Origin: Promethearchaeota archaeon
Lineage (GTDB): Archaea; Asgardarchaeota; Lokiarchaeia; Sigyniarchaeales; SOKP01
Length of the DNA: 32,000 nucleotides
NCBI GenBank assembly: GCA_030606485.1
Contig: JAUWGH010000004.1
Location: 360,001 to 392,000 of the forward strand
Direction of reading: 5' to 3'
Below the pieces are notes generated by a model, which saw only the letters and a list, made by a program, of their open reading frames with translations, searched no databases and was not told the DNA's origin. Positions 1,962-30,048 of the stretch are shown here, in pieces. The translations under genes and the position numbers were made by a program. Numbering within the stretch: the stretch's first letter is position 1; each line of letters opens with the position of its first letter.

Positions 1962-2888
1962 TTATTGTTCGCCTTCAAGTTGAGAAATTATTTGTTTTTT
2001 CATTTCTTCAACGTTTGTTGAGAAACCGAAAGTTTCAGCGAATTTTTGGTTTGTAGTTAACTCGTGAGATCTTCCTTTTTTAATGGCGTTAATAAATTCA
2101 TTATCTAATAACCATTTAACATGTTCATAAGCGCCAGAACCACGTATTTTAACAAGTTTTGATTTCAGAATTGGTTGTTTTAGGGCAATAATAGTTAATG
2201 TTCGCATTATTCTTTGGGGAATAAGGCCTCCAGCAGCAAACCTTGCAACTTTTTCGGAATATTCGGGTTTAATTTGCATACTATATTTATCTCCAATTTG
2301 AACGATTTCAATTGCAGTGGTTCTATCCAGAAATTCAAATGCGAGTTCATTGATTATATTTTTTATTAAATCTTGTTTAATCTCTAATTTTGAAGAAAGT
2401 TCTTCAAGCCCAAGTGGACGACCTGCGACAAATAAGGCGGCTTCAATTTGATTTTTGTGAAAATCTAAATCAAGTCTTTCTTTTCTTTCTTCATCCGATA
2501 ATTCTTGAATTTCTGGTTCAACTCTATTAATTTCTTCTTTTATCAAGAATTCATCTATTGGTTTAACTTCTTCTTCTGTAGATTCATCTGTTGATTCAAC
2601 TTCATCTGCTCCTATAGATTCATCTATTAATTCAATTTTATCTTCTGCTGTAGATTCATCTATTGATTCAATTTTATCTTCTTCTATAGATTCATCTATT
2701 AATTCAACTTCATCTTCTTCTATAGATTCGTCTATTAATTCAGCTTCATCTTCTGCTGTAGATTCATCTATTAATTCAACTTCTTCTTCTGTAGATTCAT
2801 CTATTAATTCAATTTCATCTTCTTCTAAAGATTCATCACTAGATTTATCTTGCTCTAATTCATTATTTTTATTATTTTCTTCTTCCAT
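1962..2888 (-). CDS. scpB: SMC-Scp complex subunit ScpB with an acidic repetitive N-terminal extension
   Basis: IEAALFVAGRPL...L, MRTLTIIALKQPI.KS.L..IRG and T...F...FG motifs; downstream of smc/scpA. Start placed at the ATG at 2888 (MEEENN). The ORF-track extension to 2960 overlaps scpA and is probably non-coding. Confidence 0.9.
   Translation of the reverse strand: MEEENNKNNELEQDKSSDESLEEDEIELIDESTEEEVELIDESTAEDEAELIDESIEEDEVELIDESIEEDKIESIDESTAEDKIELIDESIGADEVESTDESTEEEVKPIDEFLIKEEINRVEPEIQELSDEERKERLDLDFHKNQIEAALFVAGRPLGLEELSSKLEIKQDLIKNIINELAFEFLDRTTAIEIVQIGDKYSMQIKPEYSEKVARFAAGGLIPQRIMRTLTIIALKQPILKSKLVKIRGSGAYEHVKWLLDNEFINAIKKGRSHELTTNQKFAETFGFSTNVEEMKKQIISQLEGEQ
2547..2823 (-). repeat. 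Coding tandem repeat in ScpB: about 8 copies of an 11-12 aa unit (E/A-E-D-E/K-I/V-E-L-I-D-E-S-T/I), 33-36 bp
   Basis: Repeated ttcatctattaattcaa(c/t)ttc blocks on the + strand; translation EDEIELIDEST EEEVELIDEST AEDEAELIDESI ... Confidence 0.9.
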
Positions 2889-2931
2889 GCATATCAAAAA
2901 TTTTTTTTTTATTCTAATAATTCTTTGTTTG

Positions 2932-3921
2932 TCATTTAATTGTAATTGAAATATCTTCAAAATCTTCTGCTTGAAATATATTTATTTTATTGGAAGTTCC
3001 TAAGAACATTAATGAAAGGAACATCCTAACAAGAGCAAACTTACGGGAAATTGTATCCTCTTGTTCATTTTTTATTAAATTTAAAAGTTCAAAAAATGAG
3101 ATATAATCAGTATCATTAAGATCTAGGGAAGCTTTAATTTTGTTATACCATCCATCGATCAATTCTTCAATCGTTTGTTCTTTTCCTGTAATATGTTTTA
3201 ATAACTCTTTGGGTAATCTTGCTTTTGATTTTTTAAATTGTACCAATTGTTTTGCTTCTTCTCTTCGTTCACGTGCGCGTCTTAATTTTTCTCGTTTTTG
3301 CATTGTTTCTAAAATTGCAGATCTCATTGCAGAAAAGAGTTCTTCCCTAGTAGCGACTTTCTTTTTTGGTTGAATTGGTTGAGAAAATGCTTTTGGAATT
3401 GAACGTCTAGTTCGTTCCCTTAATTCTTGTATTTCTTGTTCTTGCTGTATTTTTTGTTCATGTTCAATGACATCCTTTATTTTTGTATGATGAATAGTTG
3501 CTGCACCTAAAATTGCCATTCCAGAAATTCTAAAATTAATAAAATCTTCTTTAAGCATCTTTTCAAAGAATTTATGAATTATGGGTGTGAAATCTTGATT
3601 TAAAAATGTTGAATCCTTTAATAACTCCGGATCCAATAGTGAATTATATGGAGGTTTTTGCCAGAATTTTTTATCACCTTCAATTTTTTTTTTCATTTCT
3701 TCTGTTATTTCTTCTGATAATTCACTATCTTCTTCAAATTCTGCGATTAATTCTTCTTTAACTTCAATTTCCTTTTGGATTTCAGGCAATGGTTTTTCAA
3801 TTGAATTTATTTGATCATTAGTTGATTTCGAAATGTTTGGGGTTTCATCTTTAGGCTTTTTAGGGCATTTATGTTGAGATAGCCTTTGAAAGATTTTTCC
3901 ACAATAAGGGCATTTTGGCAT
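2932..3921 (-). CDS. scpA: Kleisin ScpA with an N-terminal CxxC-x9-H-x-C zinc-finger-like extension
   Basis: ScpA-like N-domain (F..K....FINFRISGMAILGAA) and C-terminal winged helix (FLSLMFL..NKINIFQAEDFEDI); lies between smc and scpB; AGGAG SD upstream. Confidence 0.8.
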   Translation of the reverse strand: MPKCPYCGKIFQRLSQHKCPKKPKDETPNISKSTNDQINSIEKPLPEIQKEIEVKEELIAEFEEDSELSEEITEEMKKKIEGDKKFWQKPPYNSLLDPELLKDSTFLNQDFTPIIHKFFEKMLKEDFINFRISGMAILGAATIHHTKIKDVIEHEQKIQQEQEIQELRERTRRSIPKAFSQPIQPKKKVATREELFSAMRSAILETMQKREKLRRARERREEAKQLVQFKKSKARLPKELLKHITGKEQTIEELIDGWYNKIKASLDLNDTDYISFFELLNLIKNEQEDTISRKFALVRMFLSLMFLGTSNKINIFQAEDFEDISITIK

Positions 3922-3943: not shown

Positions 3944-6900
3944 TTAAGTTTCCTCCAATTCCAATATTTGTTTAGCTTCTTTTTCTAAATCCACACTAAA
4001 AACATCTGTAATTCCACCTTGCATTGAAACACCGTATATTCTATCTGCGTTTATAATATTTTCCTCACGGTGACTAATAACTAAAAATTGAGCTTGTTTA
4101 GCGAATTCCTTAATAACAATCGAGACACGATGAACATTAGGCCCATCAAGTGCAGCATCTATCTCATCCATAATATAAAATGGTGCAGGATAAAATTCTT
4201 GGACGGCAAAAATGAAAGATAATGCAACTAAAGCCTTTTCTCCGCCACTTAAAATTTCAAGTGAACTAATTTTTTTACCTCTTGGGCGAGCTTCTATGTC
4301 AATTCCTCCTTCAAAAGGTTTATCTGGCCGTTCTAATATCATTTTAGCCGAACCACCCGGTGATAATTTTTGAAACACACTTGAAAATTGTCTATTAATC
4401 TCATGGTAAGCTTTCATAAAATTTCTAGTTTTTTCTAATTCAATTTTATCAATAGAGTCAAGAATCGCCTTTCTTTCTCTTTGAATGGTTTGTCTTCTCA
4501 TATCTATTTCATCAAATCGCTCTTTAACGTCATCATATTGATCAATAGCTTTAAGATTTACTGGTTCAAGTTTCTTCTTAGCATTTTGCGTTTCGATAAT
4601 ATCAGTTTGAAGTCCTTGTTCTGTAAGTTCTTCAGTTACTGGTGGAAGAGCCCCATAATCTTTACCTCTTTCATAAAGAGTTTCAATCTGATCAGTTGTA
4701 ATGATTTTTTTTGATTCAAGATTATTCAATTTGGAATGTTCCATCGATAAATCTGCTTTTAGGGAGGAAATAACATTTTGCATTTCTTTTTGTTTTTTCC
4801 AGGATTCATCTTTTTTAATCACTATCTCATCGATTTCTTTTTGTTTTTCTATTTTTTCATTATTTACTTCGGTAAGAGTTTCATTAATTTTTTCGATATC
4901 TTTTTTAATTTGTTCAATGAGTTGATTAGAATTTTCAATTTCTTCTGCTAAAGTTTTAATTTGTTGTTCTCGTTCTTTATTTTTAGATAATTCATTAAAG
5001 TCTTTTTGTTGTTTCTGTAAATTTTTATTCATATCTTTCAAGTGTTTTTGAATTTCCTTCTGCTTATTGAATTCCTCATCTTTATGGTTTTTTAATTCAT
5101 TAATTGTAATTTGTTCCTCATCGATTTGCTTTTGAATTTCTGCTTGAGAAATAGTTTGTTCCTCAATTTTTTTATTATTATCATCGATTTTATTATTCGA
5201 GTCAACATTTTCAGTTTTTAATTCTTCAATAGAATCTATGAGTCGCTGAATATTTTGTAGAGCTCTCAAATCATCAGTTATTAATTCTAGATTTTGATTT
5301 TCTGAATCAATTTGTTTTTGTAATTGTGCTGTTTTTCCCCAGAATTTTTCTTTCTCTAATTTTAAATCGTCAATTTTGTTTTGATGTGCTTCTAATTCTT
5401 TTTTCCTTGTTTCAATGCTTTTATTTGTTGCAATAATTTCATTATTCTTTTCTACAATTTCTTTTTCAATAGATTTAATATTTTCCTCAATTTCAGTTAT
5501 ATTTTCCAATAAATTTTGTATCCCTTTGAGATCTTGTAAATTCTCTAGAACATTATCAAGTGCTTTTTGACTATTATCAATTTTATCTTGAATCTCTTTC
5601 TTTATAGTCCAAAACTGTTTTTTCAACTCTTTAATATTTTCTTGTTCTTTATTTAATTGTTCTTTCTCTTTGTTTTTCTCATCAATAAACTTATTTTTTT
5701 CAGTGATCTCGTTTTCAAATTGTATAATTTTATTTTTTATTTCTTCTGATTGAGAAGAGAAGTCATCTAATTTTCTTTTATCCTCTGATAATTTTTGTTC
5801 GAATGATTCCTTTTTTGAATTAAAAACAGTTAGTTTTTGTTTATGATCATTCAATTCATTTAATTGGGAATTAATACTTTCAGAAATTTCTTCTAACTCT
5901 TTATATAAATCTTGACTTTTTGATAATGTTAATTTTCTTAAAGCAAGATAAACATTTTCTAATATTTCCATTAAATCTTGGACGAAATCGTCAATATTGG
6001 AGGTTGATTCTTGGACAGCAATGTCTGTAGATTCTTTTACGGATGTAAGTAATTGAGAAATTGAAGAGTCTGCATTTTCAATATATAAATTCAAAGTTTG
6101 AGTGAAAGAATTCAATGAACCACGAATATTCTTATCAGATAATTCCTCCTTATTAATTTCTTCTATAATTTTCATCATTTCAACAATATCATAGATATAT
6201 GTTTTAAAATCTTCAGCAGATGTTGAAATTGCTTCAAAATTTGATTCTTGAATTGCAGCTTTTATAGATTCAACAGAAATATGTATATTTTGGGTTAATA
6301 TATTTAAAATTTGTAAAATTCCTGTTAAATTTTCTTTATTTTGATCATAATCTTCTTCAGAGACCATAATTCGGTCTAAAAGGGCTTCTTTCTCCTTATT
6401 CAATTCATTTATTCTTTTGTTAATATTTTCTTTCTTTTTAGAGAGATTAATAACATTAGAATTTGTTTCATTCAAGTCCTCGGAAAGTGACTTTATTTCT
6501 AAGTTAAGATTTTTAATTTCTCGCTTAAAATTTTTTTGATTCTTTTGGAGAATTCTTAATTCAGTTTTATTATTAGAGATCCTGGTATTATATTCATTAA
6601 TTTCAGATTCTAATGTATTTTTTTTCATTTGAATTAATTCATAACTCTGTTCATTTTTTTTAAAAGTATTTTCTTCTTGCAAAAGTTGTTTCTTAATATC
6701 TGCTATATTCTTAATAAAATCATCTTTCTCTTTCATCAATTCTATTATCCTTACTTGAACTTCCTTTCCTTCACTCAATCTTTTGAATTCTTCTTCAATT
6801 TCAGTTTTCTTTTTATTGAGTGTATTGATTTGGTTTTTATTCATTTTTATCTCTGTATTTAAAGACGAAAAAGATGAATGTAAATCAGAGATAATTTTAT

Positions 6901-8374
6901 TTATATTACTTTTTTGGTTCTCGATTTCAGTTATTTGCGATTCCAAATCTTTTTGAACTTTATTTTCATTTTTAATCTGGTTTTTAATTTCTGCTATTTT
7001 TTCTCGAATTTGCTGCTGTTTTTGTTTAGTTTCATCAACGACTTTATCAATGTCTTCTTCTTCCCCCTTTAGTTTTTCTAGTTCGGTTTCAAGTTCAACT
7101 TTTTTATTCTTATTTCGTTTAATATTATTTTTCAATACCCCAATTTCAGCTTTGAGTGAAGAGACATTTTGTTTTATTGTAGAGATTTCACCTTTAAAAC
7201 CTGCAACAATTTTTGTATGTTCATTAATATCTCCTTCAATTTCTTTATGCTTTGATTGACTAATTTCAAATGAGTTTCTAGAATTTTCTATTTCTTTTTC
7301 AATATTAGATATATCTTTCTGGACATCTTCAATCAAATCATCAAATGTTTGACCCTCTTCCAAAACCTTTAGCTGTTTTTCAAGGTTCTCCTTTTTTATT
7401 TTTGATTTTTCGAGGGATTGTTTTTCTATTTCCATTGTTGTTTTATTAGAACTAAGTTCTGTTTTAATTTTAGTGATTTTTTCAGAGATATCTTCTCGTT
7501 CCTTTTCTTTCTCACTTATCGCTTGTTGAAGATTTTCCATTATAAGAGCTTCTTGTTTATAAATATCCTCTTGTCTATCAATTTTTCCTTTAAATTCTTC
7601 AATGATTTCTTGGGTTTTTTCCATATCTTTTTCTAATTGTTCCTCTTCCGCTTGTAATTTGGATATTTTTAAAGCAATTAATTGCGAATTATAATGGTTA
7701 ATTTTTTCATCTAATTCCTTCCATTTTAACGCATCATTTTTTTCTCTCTCAACCTTTTTCAATTGAGAAGATACTTCTGAGAAAATTGCTTCAAATTTTC
7801 CTAAATCACGTTCTGCTTTATCTAATTTTTTAAGAGTAGCATCTCTCATTTCATCATATTTTTCTAAACCGATAAGCGTTTCAATGAATACGCGTCTATC
7901 AGCAGAATTCATATGAGTTAATTCCACTATTTTTCCTTGTAAAACAAATTGATTTGAGCCATCAGGGTCAATATTTGCTTGTGCTAAAGCATTTAGTAAT
8001 GCTGACCGGGTTGTAGTCTTTCCATTAATTAAATATTTACTTCCTATTGTTTTTCTTACTTCTCTTGCTATTTCAAATGTATCTCCACCACCAGGAAATA
8101 TTCCCTCTGAATTATCAAATGTAATAGCTACCCTTGCAGTTGAGGCAGGCTTTTCTTTTTGGGTTCCAGCAAAAATTAAATCCTTTAGTGATTCAGCCCT
8201 CATAGTTTTTTTCGATAAACGTCCAAGACAAAAACATAATGCATCGATAACATTCGATTTTCCAGCACCATTTGGACCCACAATACATGTAAAACCTGGA
8301 GAGAGCTTAATCGTAACCGTTCTATCTCCAAAGGATTTGAAACCAGTCATACTGATTTTCTTTATAATAGTCAT
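3944..8374 (-). CDS. smc: SMC ATPase (1476 aa, very long coiled coils, no canonical hinge visible)
   Basis: N-terminal GFKSF, Walker A GPNGAGKSN, Q-loop FVLQG; C-terminal PVNLKAI, signature LSGGEK, Walker B/D-loop MDEIDAALD, ISH; co-oriented with scpA/scpB. Confidence 0.95.
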   Translation of the reverse strand: MTIIKKISMTGFKSFGDRTVTIKLSPGFTCIVGPNGAGKSNVIDALCFCLGRLSKKTMRAESLKDLIFAGTQKEKPASTARVAITFDNSEGIFPGGGDTFEIAREVRKTIGSKYLINGKTTTRSALLNALAQANIDPDGSNQFVLQGKIVELTHMNSADRRVFIETLIGLEKYDEMRDATLKKLDKAERDLGKFEAIFSEVSSQLKKVEREKNDALKWKELDEKINHYNSQLIALKISKLQAEEEQLEKDMEKTQEIIEEFKGKIDRQEDIYKQEALIMENLQQAISEKEKEREDISEKITKIKTELSSNKTTMEIEKQSLEKSKIKKENLEKQLKVLEEGQTFDDLIEDVQKDISNIEKEIENSRNSFEISQSKHKEIEGDINEHTKIVAGFKGEISTIKQNVSSLKAEIGVLKNNIKRNKNKKVELETELEKLKGEEEDIDKVVDETKQKQQQIREKIAEIKNQIKNENKVQKDLESQITEIENQKSNINKIISDLHSSFSSLNTEIKMNKNQINTLNKKKTEIEEEFKRLSEGKEVQVRIIELMKEKDDFIKNIADIKKQLLQEENTFKKNEQSYELIQMKKNTLESEINEYNTRISNNKTELRILQKNQKNFKREIKNLNLEIKSLSEDLNETNSNVINLSKKKENINKRINELNKEKEALLDRIMVSEEDYDQNKENLTGILQILNILTQNIHISVESIKAAIQESNFEAISTSAEDFKTYIYDIVEMMKIIEEINKEELSDKNIRGSLNSFTQTLNLYIENADSSISQLLTSVKESTDIAVQESTSNIDDFVQDLMEILENVYLALRKLTLSKSQDLYKELEEISESINSQLNELNDHKQKLTVFNSKKESFEQKLSEDKRKLDDFSSQSEEIKNKIIQFENEITEKNKFIDEKNKEKEQLNKEQENIKELKKQFWTIKKEIQDKIDNSQKALDNVLENLQDLKGIQNLLENITEIEENIKSIEKEIVEKNNEIIATNKSIETRKKELEAHQNKIDDLKLEKEKFWGKTAQLQKQIDSENQNLELITDDLRALQNIQRLIDSIEELKTENVDSNNKIDDNNKKIEEQTISQAEIQKQIDEEQITINELKNHKDEEFNKQKEIQKHLKDMNKNLQKQQKDFNELSKNKEREQQIKTLAEEIENSNQLIEQIKKDIEKINETLTEVNNEKIEKQKEIDEIVIKKDESWKKQKEMQNVISSLKADLSMEHSKLNNLESKKIITTDQIETLYERGKDYGALPPVTEELTEQGLQTDIIETQNAKKKLEPVNLKAIDQYDDVKERFDEIDMRRQTIQRERKAILDSIDKIELEKTRNFMKAYHEINRQFSSVFQKLSPGGSAKMILERPDKPFEGGIDIEARPRGKKISSLEILSGGEKALVALSFIFAVQEFYPAPFYIMDEIDAALDGPNVHRVSIVIKEFAKQAQFLVISHREENIINADRIYGVSMQGGITDVFSVDLEKEAKQILELEET

Positions 8375-8493
8375 AAGATGAAAAACCTTTTGATCTAATA
8401 TCTTACTTTAATTTAAATAAACACATTTATTTATAATTATTTTCAATTTCTTATAATTTATTTATTGGATTTTATGACACAGAATTTTATTTT

Positions 8494-16130: not shown

Positions 16131-18536
16131 TTATTTTTTTCGATGCGTTTTGAATTTTTCATATAATGCTTTATCCAAAAATTTTCCGATTTTTTTTGAT
16201 ATACTACTAGCAATTCCCCAACGTTCTCCTTCAATCATTACTTTAAAATCTTCAGAAGTTGGCTCACGATTCAGTCTTGTTTGTAAAATTGGAGTTGCAA
16301 TTTTAATTACTATTTCTTTTATGTCTTCATACGCCGGAATTCGGATAGGATCCCAGCGTTCTTTTATTTTCTGTAATGCAAAATAATAATATTGAGAGAA
16401 TAATTCAATAGGATCTCCTTTTAATTCACTATGAAGTTTTAAATTTTCAGCTGCTGTTTTAGTATCTTTTTCATTCCAATATAATTGATTAGGATTTATT
16501 CCTGGACTGGTAATTCTCATTAATGATGAGGTTATTTTTCTCTCTATCCAATTTAACGTGCTAATTTCTTGTTTCTCTCTTATTTCTTTTTTCTTCTCTT
16601 CTTCTTTTTGTTTCTTTTGTTCATAGATTTCTTCAACTCTGAGTTTTCTAAGCTGTTCATATGTTTTTAGTCTTTGAATTAAATCATATGCAATTACATA
16701 AGAAACTGGAGAAATATATTCTTCTTTTAATGTTAATGAAACAAAATCCTCAAAAATTGGACTAACTTCAGTTTTTAATTCATTAATACCTTCTTTTAAT
16801 GATTTATCTGTAAGTCTTGCCAAAATGAAACCATTTACTAAGAAAGGATTGTTCTGTGCGTTAAACATCTTACTTAGCTCTTTTTGTCTTCTTAACATTC
16901 TCTCAATCATTAGCTCTTCAATTTTAACACTAACCCATCCTTCAGTACTTGTTGTACCGAATATTCTTTCTAATCCTTTTAAAAATAATGATTTATCATC
17001 GCTGATTTTAATATAAGCTTCAAGAATTCGACCCAGGTGTCGAATAATTTGTGAAAAAATATTAAAATATATTTCTCTTGCGAGATTTGTTATTATTTCT
17101 TTGTATTCTAATATTTTTAATAATTGAGAATAATTTTGAAGATTATATTTTTTTATAATTCGATTATTAATAATTTGGTGCTTAAGATTATATGTTTTTA
17201 ATTCTTTTGGTGAGGTTCCAATATCATTACAAATTCTTTCAATTATTTTTTGATTTTTATCATCTGAGAATAATTCCTTTAAATCCATATATTTTAATCC
17301 ATTTTCATTTTCCAAGGCAGTTAGTTCTTGAGGATGAGTCTCTTTTAAATGATTATAAGAAAGTTTTGCAAGAATTATTGGATTCTTTTGAGGGTCTCGC
17401 AATTTATTAATATCTGATTTATCAATATTAAAATTCTTCATTGTTTCTATAACATTTTCTACAACTTCAATTGAAATTTTATTAAGATGGTTAAGGTTAA
17501 AAACACCAAACTTATTTAGAACAAAAATGGTATCGGAAAAAGAATAATTCATTAAACTTTGAAAGTAATAGACAAAATCATTAACATTTTTACTATTTAT
17601 TTGAGCAAGATCATTAAATATGAATCCAATTATTTCTTTCTCAAAATCTTCATAATTTTTTTCTTGTTGAAGACCTTCTTCAATTTTATTTACAAGTTCT
17701 TGTTTAGTTTGATTTGCATTTAAAAATAAATTTAAAGCACGTTTTGAAATAGGAAAAGTATCAAAATTAAATTCTAAAGCTTTTCTTAAAATCATTCTAA
17801 TAGACATTGTTTGCATTTGGAGATCTTTAAATGACTTGAATTCAAATTTATTTTTTAACGTTTCTTCTAAGCGTGAAATTAAGGATAATTCAATATATTT
17901 ATCTTCTTTTTCTTTTAAGGCTAGTTCCTTCTCAATCTCAATAGAAATGCTTTTTAATTCTGATCCTTCTTCAATAATATCGCCTTTAATTTGATGGGTA
18001 AACCCTAAAAGATCTCCAATAAAATCATAGAAATGATATTCAGGATAATTTTGTATTAGTAGGACAAGAAAATCTTCCATTTCTTGTTTAATTTTCTGTT
18101 CTTCTTGTTCTTTTTGAAACCCAGCCAACTTATCATAATTTAGTAAATAGCTTATTATGTTCTTTCTCAGATTTAACTTCTTATTATTTAGTTTTACCTC
18201 ATAATCAAATGAATCTTTTGCAAATGATTTTATTTCTTTAAATAAAGTATCTTTTTCCATTTTTTCAATTTTATATGTAGATTCCACAGAGATTTGAGCT
18301 AAATTAGATGAATCTTGTATTCTTATACCTAAATTATGATATGCATGGATTGCAGCAGCCGCTATAAGCACATTATGAAGTTTATTTTTAGTCCCAATTA
18401 ATTCGAAAATTTTCTGTTTATCTGCCTCACGTTTCAAGTGTGAAATTAGTAAATATATAGTTTGAAAATATTTTTGAGTGCTCTCAGCTGCTGTAGTTTT
18501 TCTTTTTATTCCAGAAATGCTCAATATGACATCCAC
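16131..18536 (-). CDS. Hypothetical alpha-helical protein (801 aa)
   Basis: Long intact ORF whose start overlaps the stop of the upstream 771-aa gene; no motif recognised. Confidence 0.8.
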   Translation of the reverse strand: MDVILSISGIKRKTTAAESTQKYFQTIYLLISHLKREADKQKIFELIGTKNKLHNVLIAAAAIHAYHNLGIRIQDSSNLAQISVESTYKIEKMEKDTLFKEIKSFAKDSFDYEVKLNNKKLNLRKNIISYLLNYDKLAGFQKEQEEQKIKQEMEDFLVLLIQNYPEYHFYDFIGDLLGFTHQIKGDIIEEGSELKSISIEIEKELALKEKEDKYIELSLISRLEETLKNKFEFKSFKDLQMQTMSIRMILRKALEFNFDTFPISKRALNLFLNANQTKQELVNKIEEGLQQEKNYEDFEKEIIGFIFNDLAQINSKNVNDFVYYFQSLMNYSFSDTIFVLNKFGVFNLNHLNKISIEVVENVIETMKNFNIDKSDINKLRDPQKNPIILAKLSYNHLKETHPQELTALENENGLKYMDLKELFSDDKNQKIIERICNDIGTSPKELKTYNLKHQIINNRIIKKYNLQNYSQLLKILEYKEIITNLAREIYFNIFSQIIRHLGRILEAYIKISDDKSLFLKGLERIFGTTSTEGWVSVKIEELMIERMLRRQKELSKMFNAQNNPFLVNGFILARLTDKSLKEGINELKTEVSPIFEDFVSLTLKEEYISPVSYVIAYDLIQRLKTYEQLRKLRVEEIYEQKKQKEEEKKKEIREKQEISTLNWIERKITSSLMRITSPGINPNQLYWNEKDTKTAAENLKLHSELKGDPIELFSQYYYFALQKIKERWDPIRIPAYEDIKEIVIKIATPILQTRLNREPTSEDFKVMIEGERWGIASSISKKIGKFLDKALYEKFKTHRKK

Positions 18537-20836
18537 TCTTTATATATATCATTCCAATTATTTTTTAAACGAATTTTAAGATTATTATGCCAATATTGAA
18601 AATCAAAGACATGATATAATTCCTCTTTAACCCGGTCTTTTTCATTCTCATCTAAAATATGCTTTAGAGTTATAGTCATAGGTCGTGCGATTAATTTCGA
18701 GAAATATTTTAATTCTGTTCTTTCTAAAAATTCAAATAATGATTCTTGAGAATCATCTGGAAAAATAAATTTAATGGGAATTTGAGGGTTTGGTTCAAAT
18801 TTAATTTTTTTTAGATCCTCAATTATAATGTTTTCTATATATTTAGGAAAATTTTGTTTAATTTCTAATGAAGCTTGATAATGTTTAGAGAAATTCAAGA
18901 GAATACTTTTTTCTTCTTGATTAATAATGGTTTCAATGTATCTATTCAAAATTACGCTAAAATTTTTTGGGTCTTGATCTTGTTTTTCAATTTTTTCCAA
19001 GAAATCAATAAATTCATTAACAATTTCATAAATTTGCCAATCTTTCTTTTCTATTATGTTCAAGTATTGTTTAACATATAATTTTATCCAATTTAGACAA
19101 TGCTCGCTCCATTTTAAATCAATCCCTCCCACTCTTTTTTGTAAGAATCTATGAAAAAAATTTCCAAATGTAACTGGATCTTGAATTTCATCTATAGATA
19201 TTCCTCTAAGGAATCGGTTTATTGTAGAATATCGTAAAATAAGATTTAATAGAAATTTTATTTCTTGAGGAAAAACTTTAAGCTTATCTAAATGTATTCG
19301 AATTCGGCTTGGGTCTTCATCCATCATTATCTCTGAAAAAGAAATAAGATCGGATATATTGAAATCTAGTTTTTCAAAAAATTCCATTATACTGGAATTA
19401 ATTATTTCTTTAATTTCTTCAATTGGTTGTGTCTCATCATATTTTTTTATTCTTTCAATAATCAATCTTTTTTCTATTAAATTACTAATGTAATCATCCA
19501 ATTTATCAATAAATTTATTTCCGAGGATATTTGAGAGTTTTGGCTTATTTTCCATCAAGATTCTGAGACTTTGTATATAGTTCTTTAAATAGAATTTTAA
19601 TTGATATCCAAAAAAGTATTTTGGAAGCGCGATAATGAATATTTTTAAGGTTTTTTTAAATAATTCATTCAAATAGTTTAATGTTGATTCGAGCTCAGCA
19701 GCGTGAATATAATTATATTCTTTTAACAATTGTTTCAGAGTAAATTCAACTATATAATTATATTCTTTGTAATTCTCTTCGGTTATTTCTATTTTGTGAG
19801 AAATATATTTGACTAATTTTTCAATAATTTCCTCTAAATTGCCAGTTTCGCCCGTTTTAATGAATTTAGAAACGAAATCGAAATATTTACTAAAAGATAA
19901 AGAACAATTCATTAATATTGTATTTATCTTATCAATTAACCATTGATCATTTTTAGGCTCTTTTATTGGTTGAATTTTTTGAGCAATAATTTCAATTAAG
20001 TAAGTAACAATCTTTTCTTGAATTTCGTCAATTGTACCAGTATTTGCAATTTTCAATAAATTTGCCCCCAATTTCAATGTATTTAATGTAATGAAATATG
20101 CGCTTGGTGATGAGATAAAATACTTGGTATGTTCATTGATAACAGTTTCTTTAAAATTTAAAGGAATTTTTACAAATATGGGGTTCTCAACTCGTATTTC
20201 AGGGGGGGATTCTCCATATAAAAATACATTATCACCCTTAATTGTGCTATATACATTCATTGATTCATCTTCAGTAGGTGTCGAAGATTTTATTCCAACT
20301 AATTTTTTATTCCATTTACCCTCCAATAAATCTCCTTGTAGTTTAAACGTGAAATGAGTGGCAAATTTCGCTAGAACCGCTTCTTTATGAAATTTATTTA
20401 AATCAGGACGTCTGGTAAATTCCTCAACTTCAAAAAATAATTTACTGATTTTATTTAGAGATTCTCGGGAATTATGAATTTCTAAAACTTTTTTTTCAGG
20501 TTTTAATGCAAGTAGAAGAGACTCACAATCCTTAAAAGAACCAGGAATAAAAATCATAGAATTTGGATACAATTTAGTTTTTGCATCTTTCTCATCAATA
20601 TTAAATAATTCAAATTCAATGAAATAAATTTCTGAGCCAGCATAATCTTTCAACATTGCATTATATTGAGTTTGAAATATCAATAATTCACTAACTAAGT
20701 TTTTTATTTTTTCTTGTGTTAATTTTCCTGGTCCAATAACTTCTCCAACTTTTATATCTCGATCTGGAGAGGAATATCCAAAGATTATGGTATAAATATT
20801 CTCAATATATTCACGTGTAGTAATCAAATAAATCAA
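18521..20836 (-). CDS. Hypothetical protein (771 aa)
   Basis: Long intact ORF; no motif recognised; exact start uncertain. Confidence 0.8.
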   Translation of the reverse strand: MIYLITTREYIENIYTIIFGYSSPDRDIKVGEVIGPGKLTQEKIKNLVSELLIFQTQYNAMLKDYAGSEIYFIEFELFNIDEKDAKTKLYPNSMIFIPGSFKDCESLLLALKPEKKVLEIHNSRESLNKISKLFFEVEEFTRRPDLNKFHKEAVLAKFATHFTFKLQGDLLEGKWNKKLVGIKSSTPTEDESMNVYSTIKGDNVFLYGESPPEIRVENPIFVKIPLNFKETVINEHTKYFISSPSAYFITLNTLKLGANLLKIANTGTIDEIQEKIVTYLIEIIAQKIQPIKEPKNDQWLIDKINTILMNCSLSFSKYFDFVSKFIKTGETGNLEEIIEKLVKYISHKIEITEENYKEYNYIVEFTLKQLLKEYNYIHAAELESTLNYLNELFKKTLKIFIIALPKYFFGYQLKFYLKNYIQSLRILMENKPKLSNILGNKFIDKLDDYISNLIEKRLIIERIKKYDETQPIEEIKEIINSSIMEFFEKLDFNISDLISFSEIMMDEDPSRIRIHLDKLKVFPQEIKFLLNLILRYSTINRFLRGISIDEIQDPVTFGNFFHRFLQKRVGGIDLKWSEHCLNWIKLYVKQYLNIIEKKDWQIYEIVNEFIDFLEKIEKQDQDPKNFSVILNRYIETIINQEEKSILLNFSKHYQASLEIKQNFPKYIENIIIEDLKKIKFEPNPQIPIKFIFPDDSQESLFEFLERTELKYFSKLIARPMTITLKHILDENEKDRVKEELYHVFDFQYWHNNLKIRLKNNWNDIYKEWMSY

Positions 20837-26187: not shown

Positions 26188-29100
26188 ATGTCCCAATTAA
26201 GAGAACAAACTCAAGATAATGAGTCAGAAGAAGATACAAAAGAAGATTTAAGGGAGGATTCTAAAGAAGATTTAAATGAGGATTCTAAAGAAGATTTAAA
26301 TGAGGATTCTAAAGAAGATTTAGATGAGGATTCTAAAGAAGATTTAGATGAGGATTCTAAAGAAGATTTAGATGAGGAATTAAAAGAGGATTCAAATGAA
26401 GATTTAGATGAGGAATTAAAAGAGGATTCAAATGAAGATTTAGATGAAGTCCAGCCATTTGAACCTGATCACAGTGATGTAAGAGTTTTTGACCCTAATC
26501 TCGGTGATGTAAGAGTAAATATTGAACCGAGCCTTTCAGATTTAGGCAGCTTGGATCCCGATACAAGCGAGGGTAAGGAGTTAATTAACCTTGATCTCAG
26601 TGATGTAAGAGTAAATATTGAGCCAAGCCTTTCAGATTTAGGCAGTTTGGATCCCGATACCAAAGAGGGAATATCAACGGAGCCAATTGACCTTGATCTC
26701 GGTGATGCAAGATTAAATATTGATCCGAGCCTTTCAGATTTGGGTAGTTTGGATCCTGATACCAAAGAGGGAATATCAATAGAGCAAATTGACCTTGATC
26801 TCTGTGATGCAAGATTAAATATTGATATAAGCCTTTCAGATTTGGGTAGTTTGGATCCTGATACCAAAGAGGGAATATCAACAGAGCCAATTGACCTTGA
26901 TCTCAGTGATGCAAGATTAAATATTGATCCAAGCCTTTCAGATTTAGGCAGCTTAGATCCCGAAACTAATGAGGGTAAGGAGTTAATTGACCTTGATCTC
27001 GGTGATGCAAGAGTAAATATTGAGCCGAACCTTTCAGATTTAGGCAGTTTGGATCCCGAAACCAAAGAGGGAATATCAACAGAGCCAATTGAACTTGATC
27101 ATTCAGATATAAATCCATATATTGATGACAATGAAGGAACGACTACCTCTCTTCTAATCGAACGGGATGAAGAAAGTAATCACATGTCAGAACTGAATGT
27201 TAGATTCTCGGATATGGATAGTGAATTAGCAAGCGAACTTCAAGGAGATTCAGATGTTCAAGATATAGCAAGAGATGAGTTATCTGGATTAGATGCAGAG
27301 TTACTGGAAATGGATGACATATCTTCAAGTGAATTTCGAGAAGTCCCAGTTATTCAAGACATGTTGGAAGATGAATTATCAGAAATAGATGGAGAATTAT
27401 CGTTAATAAAAGATATATCCTCAAGCGATTTTCAAGATAGTAAAATTACTCAAAATATAGTAAGAGAAGAAATAAAAGATGAATTAATGAAATTAGATAA
27501 TGAGTCATGGGATCTTAAAGATATGTTCTTAAATGAATTTATAGATCTCTCAGATACTCAATATAGCTTAGAAGAGGACTCTTTGGAAATTTCAAATGCT
27601 ATAGAACCTATGGCGACAGACATCACAAATGTGCATACAAGAACTCTTGGACAGGACTATATTGGAGAACCCCAGACAGAAAACTTATATGAAGAAGGGG
27701 ATGAAGATGAGATTAACTATGATTTAAGTATGGATAAAAGTAATCAAGAGGCATCAGAACAAGAATTATCGCTAATAGGAAAGGAAACTGGAGAAGAAAG
27801 TAAAGAAATAACGGCTATCACATCTTCTGCAACTTCCACAACCTCCACAGAGCAGAAAGAAAGCCAAGAAGATGCTAAAGAAGAGGAACAAGCATCGGAG
27901 CAAAAGGAAGAGAACGAAATGGAAATGGACTATAATAGAACTGGTTTTACTGACCAAACACTCAATTTAAAGCAGAGGTTGAATAGAGAATTTAGGAATT
28001 ATATTGATCAAAGAAAGAATTTGGATGAAAGGTTGAGGAGGGAATTTGGGAGTCAGGTTGAGGATAAAGAACAAGATATCCAAAAAGATGAACCAGAACA
28101 AGAACCATCGTTAAAAGGAAAGCAAAACGAAGAAGAAAGTAAAGAGATTACGGCTACCACATCTTCCACAACTTCCACAGAGCAGAAAGATAATCAAGAA
28201 GATGATAAAGAATCGGAACTGACTTCAGAGCGGAATGAAGAAAGCCGTAACAACACTGATATTAAAGATTCAGAAAAAGATTCGGAGAATTTAAATAAAG
28301 AAACAGAAGAAGAGGTAAAAATAGATGGAGAAGAATCAGAAGATTTGGAAGATCTTATTGATAAAGCTAAAGAAGAATTTAAGATTTTAAAAGATCCAAA
28401 ATTGAAAGAATTATTAAAAAAATATGATGGTATTGCCTATAGGGGCACGCAATTTACTAAGAAATTTATTAAATTTATTAAAGATCAAGATAATGATGCA
28501 CTAACTAAAGAAGAGAAGGATGATTTGGTTAAAATAATAAATAAATTTAATGAAAATAGAAATATAAATAATCTTGTTAAATATTACATCAAATACACTA
28601 ATCTTTCACAGCGGAAAATATTTAAAAAATTAAAAAATATGAATTTAAGAATAAAGAAAGGTGGATTAGCAAAGATGTGTCATAAGGTTTTAACACAGAA
28701 GGAATATGAAGAGAGGTTTACGGCAAATAAAGATTTGGTATCCGATGAACAACGAGAAGGCATAATAAAAGACGGTCGCTCCAAAAACCCTGACTCAATT
28801 CCAAAGATTGCAGAAAAATGGGGAGTAGCAAAATCTACTGCTAATAAAATAATAAAAGATGACTTGGGAGAAGAAGAATTTCACAAGAAATTTCCGTATT
28901 CTGAGTTATCCGATGAGCAACGAGAGGGCATAATAAAAGCCGGTCGTTCCGAGGACCCTGGCTCTTTTGACGATATTGCAGAAGAATTTGGAGTATCATT
29001 TTCTACTGCTAGAGATATAATAAAAAATGATTTGGAAAAAAAAGAATATAATAAGAAATTTTCGAAGCCTGAAGTATCCGATGAGCAACGAGAGGGCATA

Positions 29101-30048
29101 ATAAAAGCTGGTCGTTCCGAGGACCCCGGCTCTTTTGACGATATTGCAGAAGAATTTGGAGTATCATTTTCTACTGCTAGAGATATAATTAAAAATGATT
29201 TGGAAAAAAAAGAATATAATAAGAAATTTTCGAAGCCTAGGATATCCGATGAGCAACGAGAGGGCATAATAAAGGACGGTCGTTCCAAAGAATTTGATTC
29301 TATAAATAAGATTGCAGAAAAATGGGGAGTAGGATGGGGTACTGTTAAAGATATATTAGAAAATGATTTGGGAAAAAAAGAATTCGATAAAAAATTTCGT
29401 AATGATTTAGCACAATTAATAGGGTTTGAGAATCATAAATTAATTGAAAAAATAGCCACGCAAGATTTTGATGAGAAAAGAAAAAAGTCTCCAGATGTTC
29501 CAATACTCGTTTCAGAGCCCCCAATTTATACTAATAGTAATAAACGTTGCGATAATGTATTTAAAAATGATAAAAAATATCTACAAAAACTTCTTAAAGA
29601 TAAAATCGCAAAAGAGTTAAATATTGATCCTAAAGAATTAGACCACATTGAAGTTGTGCTTTTTGATTATACCGGTTGGTTACACAAAAGAAATATCATA
29701 GATAAGATTGAGAAATATCAGCATTCCAAAATTATGTTATTCATTGTCGGGACATATTTGCTTCCAAATTGGATTGCTCGAGTTAAGAAACTCCCTAAAG
29801 ATAAGAGGATTAAATATCCCGAAAACATCCGTATTATTAGTTTGGATCTTTTTGCCGATTTGTTAAATCTGAGTGATGATAATCGGAAGCAGCTTGAGGA
29901 AGTTATTAAATTAACTAGATTAAGAGATTTAGAAACCTTGAGAAGACTTAACGAACGAAATAATTATAAATTGCACCGCTTAAAAAAATCAAAAAATAGA
30001 AAAAAAGGAACCAAAAATGATTTAGATGCATTTTTGAAGAAAATTTAA
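26188..30048 (+). CDS. 1286-aa modular protein: acidic repeats, 4 tandem HTH modules, C-terminal PD-(D/E)XK-like domain
   Basis: Intact ORF with directly visible repeat arrays. HTH pattern S...IA..(W/F)GV..ST...II; C-terminal E / R-x-D / D-Y-T / KY motif series. Confidence 0.85.
26230..26445 (+). repeat. Coding 24-bp tandem repeat (EDSKEDLN/D x6) followed by a 36-bp variant ([12 protein letters not shown] x2)
   Basis: Consecutive gaggattctaaagaagattta(a/g)at units. Confidence 0.95.
26500..27099 (+). repeat. Six coding repeats of 96/102 bp (L[24 protein letters not shown]...-LD)
   Basis: Unit lengths 32,34,34,34,32,34 aa; invariant core LSDLGSLDP. Confidence 0.95.
28738..29406 (+). repeat. 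Four 168-bp (56-aa) tandem HTH repeats
   Basis: tccgatga(a/g)caacgaga(a/g)ggcataataaa recurs at 28741, 28909, 29077 and 29245. Confidence 0.95.

Follow-up and report, generated by a model that had tools for sequence, protein, structure and literature searches.

A Condensin-Type Smc with an All-Helical Module at the Position of the Hinge in Asgard Archaea

The smc Gene and Its Product

We analyzed an smc gene carried by a 32,000-nt stretch of DNA from a Promethearchaeota archaeon of the order Sigyniarchaeales (assembly GCA_030606485.1, contig JAUWGH010000004.1, positions 360,001–392,000), hereafter called the window. The gene occupies positions 3944–8374 on the reverse strand, as do all of its parts described below, and encodes a hinge-less, long-armed protein of 1476 aa, followed by genes for a putative kleisin and a kite protein of the ScpA and ScpB types. 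The length given by a first-pass annotation made from the sequence alone was confirmed by the open reading frame (ORF), as was its assignment to the condensin-type Smc proteins in an scpA/scpB context, which agrees with Pfam SMC_N matches at both ends of the protein and with the scores of the two partners given below.

The ATPase head is split between the two termini. The N-terminal half spans residues 1–170 (positions 7865–8374), with the Pfam SMC_N match at residues 4–138 and the Walker A motif GPNGAGKS at residues 33–40. The C-terminal half spans residues 1291–1476 (3947–4504) and contains the signature LSGGEK, the Walker B motif IMDEID, and the H-loop ISHR. The translation shows the full set of ATPase motifs (Walker A, Q-loop, signature LSGGE, Walker B, and H-loop), and SMC_N was found at both termini with 189 bits (9e-56). 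Over the whole protein, the NCBIfam model TIGR02168 passed its cut-off of 567 with 581 bits, and the archaeal-type model TIGR02169 fell short of its cut-off of 729 with 624 bits, while Rad50 models reached only 62–98 bits. The heads matched solved Pyrococcus Smc head structures in the PDB at 3.6e-115, and residues 1133–1472 are 34% identical to the canonical Smc of this genome. By its heads the protein is thus a condensin-type Smc. Metatranscriptome contigs from two studies matched positions 5817–6302 and 6821–8403 with 95–99% identity and left the other parts of the gene uncovered; RNA libraries thus contain the gene of a close relative, which is a weak hint of expression, DNA carry-over being possible.

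Between the heads lie the two strands of the coiled-coil arm, residues 171–679 (6338–7864) and residues 831–1290 (4505–5884), assigned from composition and from an AlphaFold2 (AF2) model. The N-terminal strand of ~510 residues is proline free, with 27% hydrophobic residues and 19% lysine and arginine, and was modeled as helix at residues 601–670 with a predicted local distance difference test (pLDDT) score of ~93. There is no proline anywhere in residues 137–1244, a run of ~1100 residues, and only four glycines in residues 500–1000.

Arm Length

Counted from where the N-terminal head ends to where the tip domain begins, the N-terminal arm strand is an uninterrupted helix of 508 aa, ~1.5 times the canonical length, compared with ~338 aa for this genome's canonical Smc and 412 aa in a short-arm form of the hinge-less protein (P0153 and family f4). 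The arms of natural prokaryotic Smc proteins have modal lengths of 341 and 515 aa and a lesser peak at 423 aa, intermediate lengths being disfavored (Burmann et al. 2017, PMC5344682). The three Asgard values of 338, 412, and 508 aa match the modes of 341, 423, and 515 aa, so the long arms follow a known periodic rule rather than break it. The first-pass annotation had called the arms extra-long: they are indeed longer than canonical ones, but at ~510 aa they fit the 515-aa mode and stay within known rules (PMC5344682).

An alpha helix rises by ~0.15 nm per residue. On this basis the chain from head to turn would measure roughly 80 nm.

An All-Helical Apex Module

The two arm strands are joined by an apex module at residues 680–830 (5885–6337). 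The first-pass annotation had placed an all-helical apex without hinge or zinc hook at positions 5880–6360, which correspond to residues 672–832 and closely bracket the conserved module; the chain reverses at residues 745–748 (6131–6142, from DSSP of the AF2 model), near the midpoint of 6160 that it had proposed.

No match to the hinge family SMC_hinge (PF06470) or to Rad50_zn_hook was found by Pfam at E ≤ 1, either in the whole protein or in residues 560–920 alone, and the same tests do find hinges in both other SMC proteins of this genome. A profile of the apex aligned to a profile of 18 Asgard canonical Smc hinges with an hhalign probability of only 0.5%. The protein has just three cysteines, C30, C47, and C49, all in the N-terminal head, which leaves none for a CxxC hook, as had been noted before. 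An AF2 monomer model of residues 600–900, built from a 106-row alignment, is one plain helical hairpin (helix 601–744, turn 745–748, helix 748–899) with no beta strands; pLDDT was ~93 in the flanking coiled coil and 68–78 in the conserved tip of the monomer. Foldseek of this model against the PDB returned nothing at E ≤ 1e-3, and no hinge was among the matches, the best of which was the helical hairpin of a chemoreceptor (2ch7), followed by coiled-coil fragments of Smc, MukB, and Rad50.

Pfam, hhalign, and Foldseek, all searched for a match that would overturn the claim of a missing hinge, thus failed to return one. A strongly diverged hinge concealed in residues 680–830 and missed by these tools would have the right size (~150 aa) and the right location, but it is hard to reconcile with a model devoid of beta strands, a segment with only two glycines, the three null searches, and the homology of the module to helical repeats of non-SMC proteins described below; we consider it very improbable indeed.

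The apex differs from the arms in composition. Lysine and arginine make up 8% of residues 680–830 compared with 17–19% of the arms, and large hydrophobic residues 37% compared with 26–27%; in 21-residue windows the hydrophobic fraction rises to 57% at the tip, against 27 ± 6% in the arms. The module has an internal repeat, residues 682–735 (6170–6331) aligning with residues 752–806 (5957–6121). These copies of ~54 aa each gave a local score of 69 compared with 29.9 ± 5.7 for shuffled sequences, a value reached in 0 of 500 shuffles.

A search with residues 620–880 yielded 167 matches, nearly all of them in proteins of 1464–1497 aa. The 106 full-length homologues, most with identities of 54–68%, aligned over 1493 columns with almost no indels in the arms. 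Column entropy was low in the heads, high in the arms, and low again at residues 685–720 and 781–840; residues with entropy below 0.5 make up 80% of the apex helix 685–719, 78% of the heads, and 23% of the arms. An alignment nearly free of indels, together with conservation of the tip at the level of the heads, indicates that the hinge-less Smc is neither a chance product nor an assembly artefact. The apex is a discrete, strongly conserved, all-helical module standing where the alpha/beta hinge would be, and the AF2 hairpin and its head-level conservation uphold the earlier suggestion of a distinct helical unit.

Five of the seven heptad positions in helix 685–719 are nearly invariant, so all faces of the helix are constrained, beyond the a/d seam that a two-stranded coil requires. 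Likewise, hydrophobic peaks of 57% imply more buried surface than a single hairpin can cover. Because conservation and hydrophobicity run all round the helix, further packing partners are expected and we read the tip as an interface, the simplest partner of which would be the apex module of another chain.

Several weaker signals were set aside. Low-scoring Pfam matches of the arms and apex to Fib_alpha, Snapin, Baculo_PEP_C, and HAUS1 (E from 1e-4 to 0.8) were taken as low-complexity coiled-coil matches, and as coiled-coil noise the precomputed labels PF24161 and PF23649 on some homologues, which Pfam scans of P0004, P0007, and P0119 did not reproduce. A feature search of the ESM Atlas with the apex gave best values of 0.87–0.88, to unnamed clusters and below a meaningful level. 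Complex prediction for two copies of residues 650–860 with an alignment scored 0.00 with controls not run, and counts neither way.

The Module outside SMC Proteins

An exhaustive search of 1.84 billion protein cluster representatives with a hidden Markov model profile of the apex module found it in only 42, and it has no Pfam family. The 42 carriers comprise an Smc class with the module at about residues 667–836, one Smc of 1296 aa with the module at residues 581–733, a tandem class, and fragments. Screening 400 genomes of the phylum had first revealed the tandem class, as ORFs of 920–1180 aa in the sister family that contain the module twice and no SMC head. Members include P0124 (L029:1996–5121, reverse strand), P0125, P0128–P0135, and proteins at L030 and L031. 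In P0124 the modules lie at residues 68–222 and 328–475, and copies of the P0124/P0125 type are 30–31% identical to the Smc tip (E 2e-13). The modules are followed by a nonhelical middle region and a Lys/Thr-rich, histone-H1-like tail. The genes adjoin one for a conserved zinc-ribbon-like protein of ~470 aa. An AF2 model of P0124 residues 40–500 (11-row alignment) was all helical, with pLDDT 86 and a predicted TM score (pTM) of 0.60, and Foldseek against the PDB gave matches with TM ≤ 0.27 only. One distant carrier, P0163, matched Baculo_PEP_C and ApoLp-III, at most a hint to a helical-repeat type.

Because the module also occurs in tandem in non-SMC proteins of ~1000 aa, it is an independent domain family. 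This raises the alternative that the apex is a docking site for another factor, such as the lysine-tailed tandem-module proteins or a cytoskeletal or membrane partner, the two Smc chains then being joined only by heads, kleisin, and arm–arm contacts. The occurrence of the same module in proteins with histone-H1-like tails speaks for docking, all-round conservation suits any tight interface and not a homotypic one alone, and arm contacts are known to help dimerize hinge-less Bacillus subtilis Smc (PMC5526789). On the other hand, in the genome of the window the module was found in Smc only, and the 400-genome scan gave the same result for the whole family, so that a module-bearing heterotypic partner is lacking in the group with the widest occurrence of the Smc; self-association is also in keeping with the two-fold pseudo-symmetry of the hairpin. 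Docking is the strongest competitor to self-association of the tips, although we regard it as distinctly less likely.

Distribution and Origin

In the 400-genome scan, module-bearing Smc proteins were found in 114 of the 134 genomes of the family to which the window belongs and in three further families of the same order (1/1, 14/14, and 2/4 genomes). Outside these four families only four genomes of the phylum had one. Apex matches in other families (G039 in f13 and G063 in f16) lie on short contigs and have sequences nested within the main families, that of G063 being identical to P0140, and were taken as mis-binned. Named homologue records are labeled Promethearchaeota, Lokiarchaeia, or other Asgard, including Promethearchaeota/Promethearchaeia metagenome-assembled genomes (MAGs) from sediments, and near-identical DNA is present in metagenomes that several studies obtained from cold seeps and marine sediments. 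As sampled by these sequence searches, the hinge-less Smc is confined to one order of Lokiarchaeia-type Asgards. In one closed MAG chromosome (CP070831; G188:C1:2197398–2201762) the gene is split into ORFs of 879 and 604 aa by a frameshift or assembly error.

The genome of the window encodes two other SMC proteins. A second, hinge-bearing smc, for which the first-pass annotation had advised a check, is indeed present (G000:C10:788955–792542): its product is a canonical Smc of 1195 aa with a hinge match of 112 bits, and it adjoins a second ScpB gene; the genome has another ScpA-like gene at a different site. The third protein is SMC5/6-like, of ~1136 aa (G000:C8:382139–385549; L012:5139–8549), with a weak hinge match of 18.8–23 bits. 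Two ORFs of 223 and 174 aa without a Pfam family lie 3′ of its gene and may be its kleisin and kite.

A head phylogeny, the other check that had been advised, was inferred by maximum likelihood (IQ-TREE, LG+C20) from 41 sequences, all Asgard, with non-Asgard and eukaryotic sequences left out. All hinge-less Smc proteins formed one clade (100/100), with the short-arm form of ~1300 aa as sister to the rest. The clade lies within the Asgard canonical Smc radiation and is split at 100/100 from the order's own canonical Smc; branching among the canonical clades was unresolved, and SMC5/6-like proteins formed the outgroup (100/100), far from the hinge-less clade. By this tree the hinge-less smc arose once, from a condensin-type Smc. 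Branches within the clade are short and the C-terminal heads are 84–91% identical across families, which indicates strong purifying selection. The first-pass annotation had considered the protein relevant to SMC evolution in the lineage closest to eukaryotes. As a derived paralogue restricted to one order, and not a trait of the Asgard lineage ancestral to eukaryotes, it says little on the origin of eukaryotic SMC proteins.

We scanned for the hinge family in 189 genomes with completeness of at least 90%. In most genera of the window's family only a weak match of the SMC5/6 type was obtained, the canonical Smc of ~1200 aa being kept only in the window's genus, one more genus, part of another, and the sister family. 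A direct SMC_N scan of four genomes from the two largest genera, of which one is closed and the other three are 100% complete, recovered a hinge-less Smc of ~1484–1497 aa and an SMC5/6-like protein of ~1160 aa, and no canonical Smc. By these scans most genera of the family have lost the canonical Smc and are left with the hinge-less protein as their sole condensin-type Smc. In the sister family, closed genomes of 4.36, 4.32, and 6.04 Mb each carry both the canonical and the hinge-less complexes.

Two genomes of one genus of the window's family (G161 and G162), in neither of which a full-length canonical Smc was found, contain hinge-only ORFs of 233–245 aa (L141:3521–4258 and L142:3216–3917, both reverse strand), consisting of ~100 residues and an SMC hinge (89–99 bits), with a response regulator upstream and Fe-S/CCG genes downstream in both. 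They represent either a conserved hinge-only protein or a kept remnant.

That most of the family has no condensin-type Smc besides the hinge-less one speaks for a housekeeping role. Its status as a lineage-specific paralogue, and the canonical Smc–ScpB and SMC5/6-like protein that accompany it in the window's genome, could also be taken to mean that it is an accessory SMC specialized in defense, repair, or plasmid-directed functions, comparable to Wadjet/MksB or Rad50-type systems, rather than a housekeeping organizer. Such a role is quite improbable in our view, given that closed or 100%-complete genomes are among those relying on it alone, that the canonical paralogue has the faster-evolving heads of the two, and that its operon, in which no nuclease or defense gene was found, adjoins housekeeping genes for tRNA modification and an aminoacyl-tRNA synthetase.

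Kleisin, Kite, and Neighboring Genes

The gene following smc (2932–3921, reverse strand) starts 22 nt past the smc stop and encodes an ScpA-like protein of 329 aa. Its Pfam scores, 18.8 bits for SMC_ScpA and 16.3 bits for the C-terminus of Rad21_Rec8, are both below cut-off. A profile of 18 orthologues searched against the PDB matched seven chains, all seven of them kleisin fragments, with E values of 0.027–0.14, and the matches are collinear, the N-domain being followed by the C-terminal winged helix. These weak but consistent signals suggest that the product is a kleisin.

Its N-terminal appendage varies between groups. In the window's genus it is a zinc-knuckle-like C-x2-C...H-x-C motif; in most other genera of the family (L054, L076, L107, and others) it is a SAP/HeH-like helix-extended-helix with the consensus W-T-V-K-E-L-R-E-F-A..N-I-K-I-P-S-K-S-K-K; and in the sister family (L032:9655–10752) it is a long Lys/Thr/Ser-rich tail. 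All three types look like DNA-binding add-ons.

The kite gene (1962–2960, reverse strand) encodes a long form of ScpB with an acidic-repeat N-terminal extension (Pfam SMC_ScpB, 118.5 bits; TIGR00281, 103 bits). Translation probably begins at the ATG at 2888. The N-terminal ~150 aa (about 2400–2880) contain about seven near-identical acidic repeats of the type E-L-I-D-E-S-x-E-E-D-E, and this form of ScpB matches the NCBIfam "ScpB long form" model weakly.

The order smc–scpA–scpB is collinear in 38 of the 41 related loci that hold all three genes. With partners predicted from this conserved operon, the Smc, kleisin, and kite probably constitute a complete, lineage-specific complex of the Smc–ScpAB type. 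The below-threshold scores on which the kleisin is identified weigh against this.

Besides the housekeeping genes mentioned above, the operon adjoins a gene for a 141-aa protein without a family. Elsewhere in the window, two overlapping large ORFs of 801 and 771 aa without a Pfam match lie at 16131–20836 (reverse strand), and a protein of 1286 aa with several helix-turn-helix matches within residues 868–1011 is encoded at 26188–30048 (forward strand).

Proposed Role of the Tip

We propose that two apex hairpins pack into a helical bundle of four or more helices, which would hold two Smc chains together at the tip and so substitute for the hinge. A tripartite ring or rod, ~80 nm long, would then still be closed, and the complex would work on the chromosome through ATP-driven engagement of the heads as other Smc–ScpAB complexes do. 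DNA contacts might be made by the heads and the DNA-binding-like N-terminal appendages of the kleisin. Because the tip is acidic and poor in lysine and arginine, it is unlikely to bind DNA in the manner of a hinge. There is precedent for such a replacement, the zinc-hook chimera of B. subtilis described below being functional, which indicates that the type of dimerization domain is not critical. Taken together, we favor, with some confidence, a helical-bundle dimerization domain in place of the hinge.

Several points tell against this proposal. Dimerization at the tip is deduced from conservation and hydrophobicity; a simple hairpin suffices for the AF2 monomer; and the module could serve as an interface for a different partner. 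Moreover, arm–arm contacts and the kleisin also hold Smc dimers together, so a dimerizing tip is not strictly needed. Pairing with the canonical Smc can be dismissed, as there is no hinge to pair with and the canonical protein is absent from most of the genomes. The module might instead be a homotypic or heterotypic association domain that gives this Smc access to assemblies closed to other SMC proteins, such as tip-to-tip higher oligomers or attachment to module-bearing, chromatin-bound proteins, or the tips might be free and undimerized. We think this rather unlikely, but if true, a housekeeping SMC motor would organize the chromosome without the closed hinge-to-head ring of entrapment and loop-extrusion models.

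Comparison with Known Systems

The Asgard complex resembles the canonical Smc–ScpAB of B. subtilis and Pyrococcus in its ABC-type heads, antiparallel arm, kleisin/kite operon, and the branching of its heads within the condensin type. It differs in having no hinge, a tip drawn from a separate domain family, arms of ~510 rather than ~340 residues, and unusual N-terminal extensions on both kleisin and kite. With Rad50/SbcC it shares a head and long coiled coil without a globular hinge and a chain reversal in a short turn, but it lacks the CxxC hook and an Mre11/SbcD neighbor and has Smc-type heads together with a kleisin and a kite. From the SMC5/6-like archaeal proteins the hinge-less heads are split off by a 100/100 branch.

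The closest parallel for the replacement itself is engineered. B. subtilis Smc in which the hinge was swapped for the Pyrococcus Rad50 zinc hook, Smc(Zh), is functional, and the kind of domain used for dimerization was accordingly called “surprisingly uncritical” (PMC5344682). In both proteins an unrelated tip domain stands in for the hinge; the Asgard replacement, in contrast, is natural, metal free (there is no Cys/His pair at the tip), and old enough to have become fixed across an order.

The best structural match of the apex, the cytoplasmic domain of a methyl-accepting chemotaxis protein (PDB 2ch7), is likewise a long antiparallel helical hairpin. Such chemoreceptor hairpins pair with a second chain to give a four-helix bundle. 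At a Foldseek E of 3.4e-3, 11% identity, and TM 0.54 with the predicted model, the likeness is one of shape and not of common descent.

“Hinge-less” SMC variants have been reported from marine Actinobacteria (Sussfeld et al. 2025, PMC12153180). According to the available parts of that paper these have Smc-like heads and neither a hinge nor CxxC, and they form a bacterial cluster from oceanic metagenomes, compared here with the Asgard family by description only; a conserved tip module, partner genes, or an arm-length analysis are not reported for them in those parts. Among Asgard archaea, canonical and SMC5/6-related proteins have been described (Yoshinaga and Inagaki 2021, PMC8665677), and a preprint (van Hooff et al., bioRxiv 10.1101/2024.01.07.573240), the text supplements of which never mention a hinge, gives the same two types and, for Hodarchaeales, an additional duplication of the SMC5/6-related type. 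A search of the open-access literature for an earlier account of this architecture found no description of an Asgard hinge-less Smc or its tip module, nor any report that this family has lost the canonical Smc. What is new is therefore the tip-module domain family and the hinge-less Asgard Smc, the Smc–ScpAB type of complex being already known.

Significance

The hinge is assigned roles in dimerization, DNA binding, DNA entry, and loop extrusion, and is generally regarded as common to all Smc, MukB, and eukaryotic SMC proteins. A whole archaeal order has swapped it for an unrelated, acidic, all-helical module, and most of the largest family of that order then dropped the hinge-bearing Smc. The module itself is a new helical domain family, common to an SMC and to lysine-tailed non-SMC proteins. 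The Asgard protein is a natural counterpart to the laboratory exchange of hinge for zinc hook, and its arm lengths of 338, 412, and 508 aa, all on periodic modes, support the view that arm geometry outweighs the type of tip. Because closed genomes of the sister family carry both complexes, the two can be compared within one cell. These archaea would thus possess a natural SMC motor that works without a hinge and, in most of the family, does so as the only condensin-type Smc.

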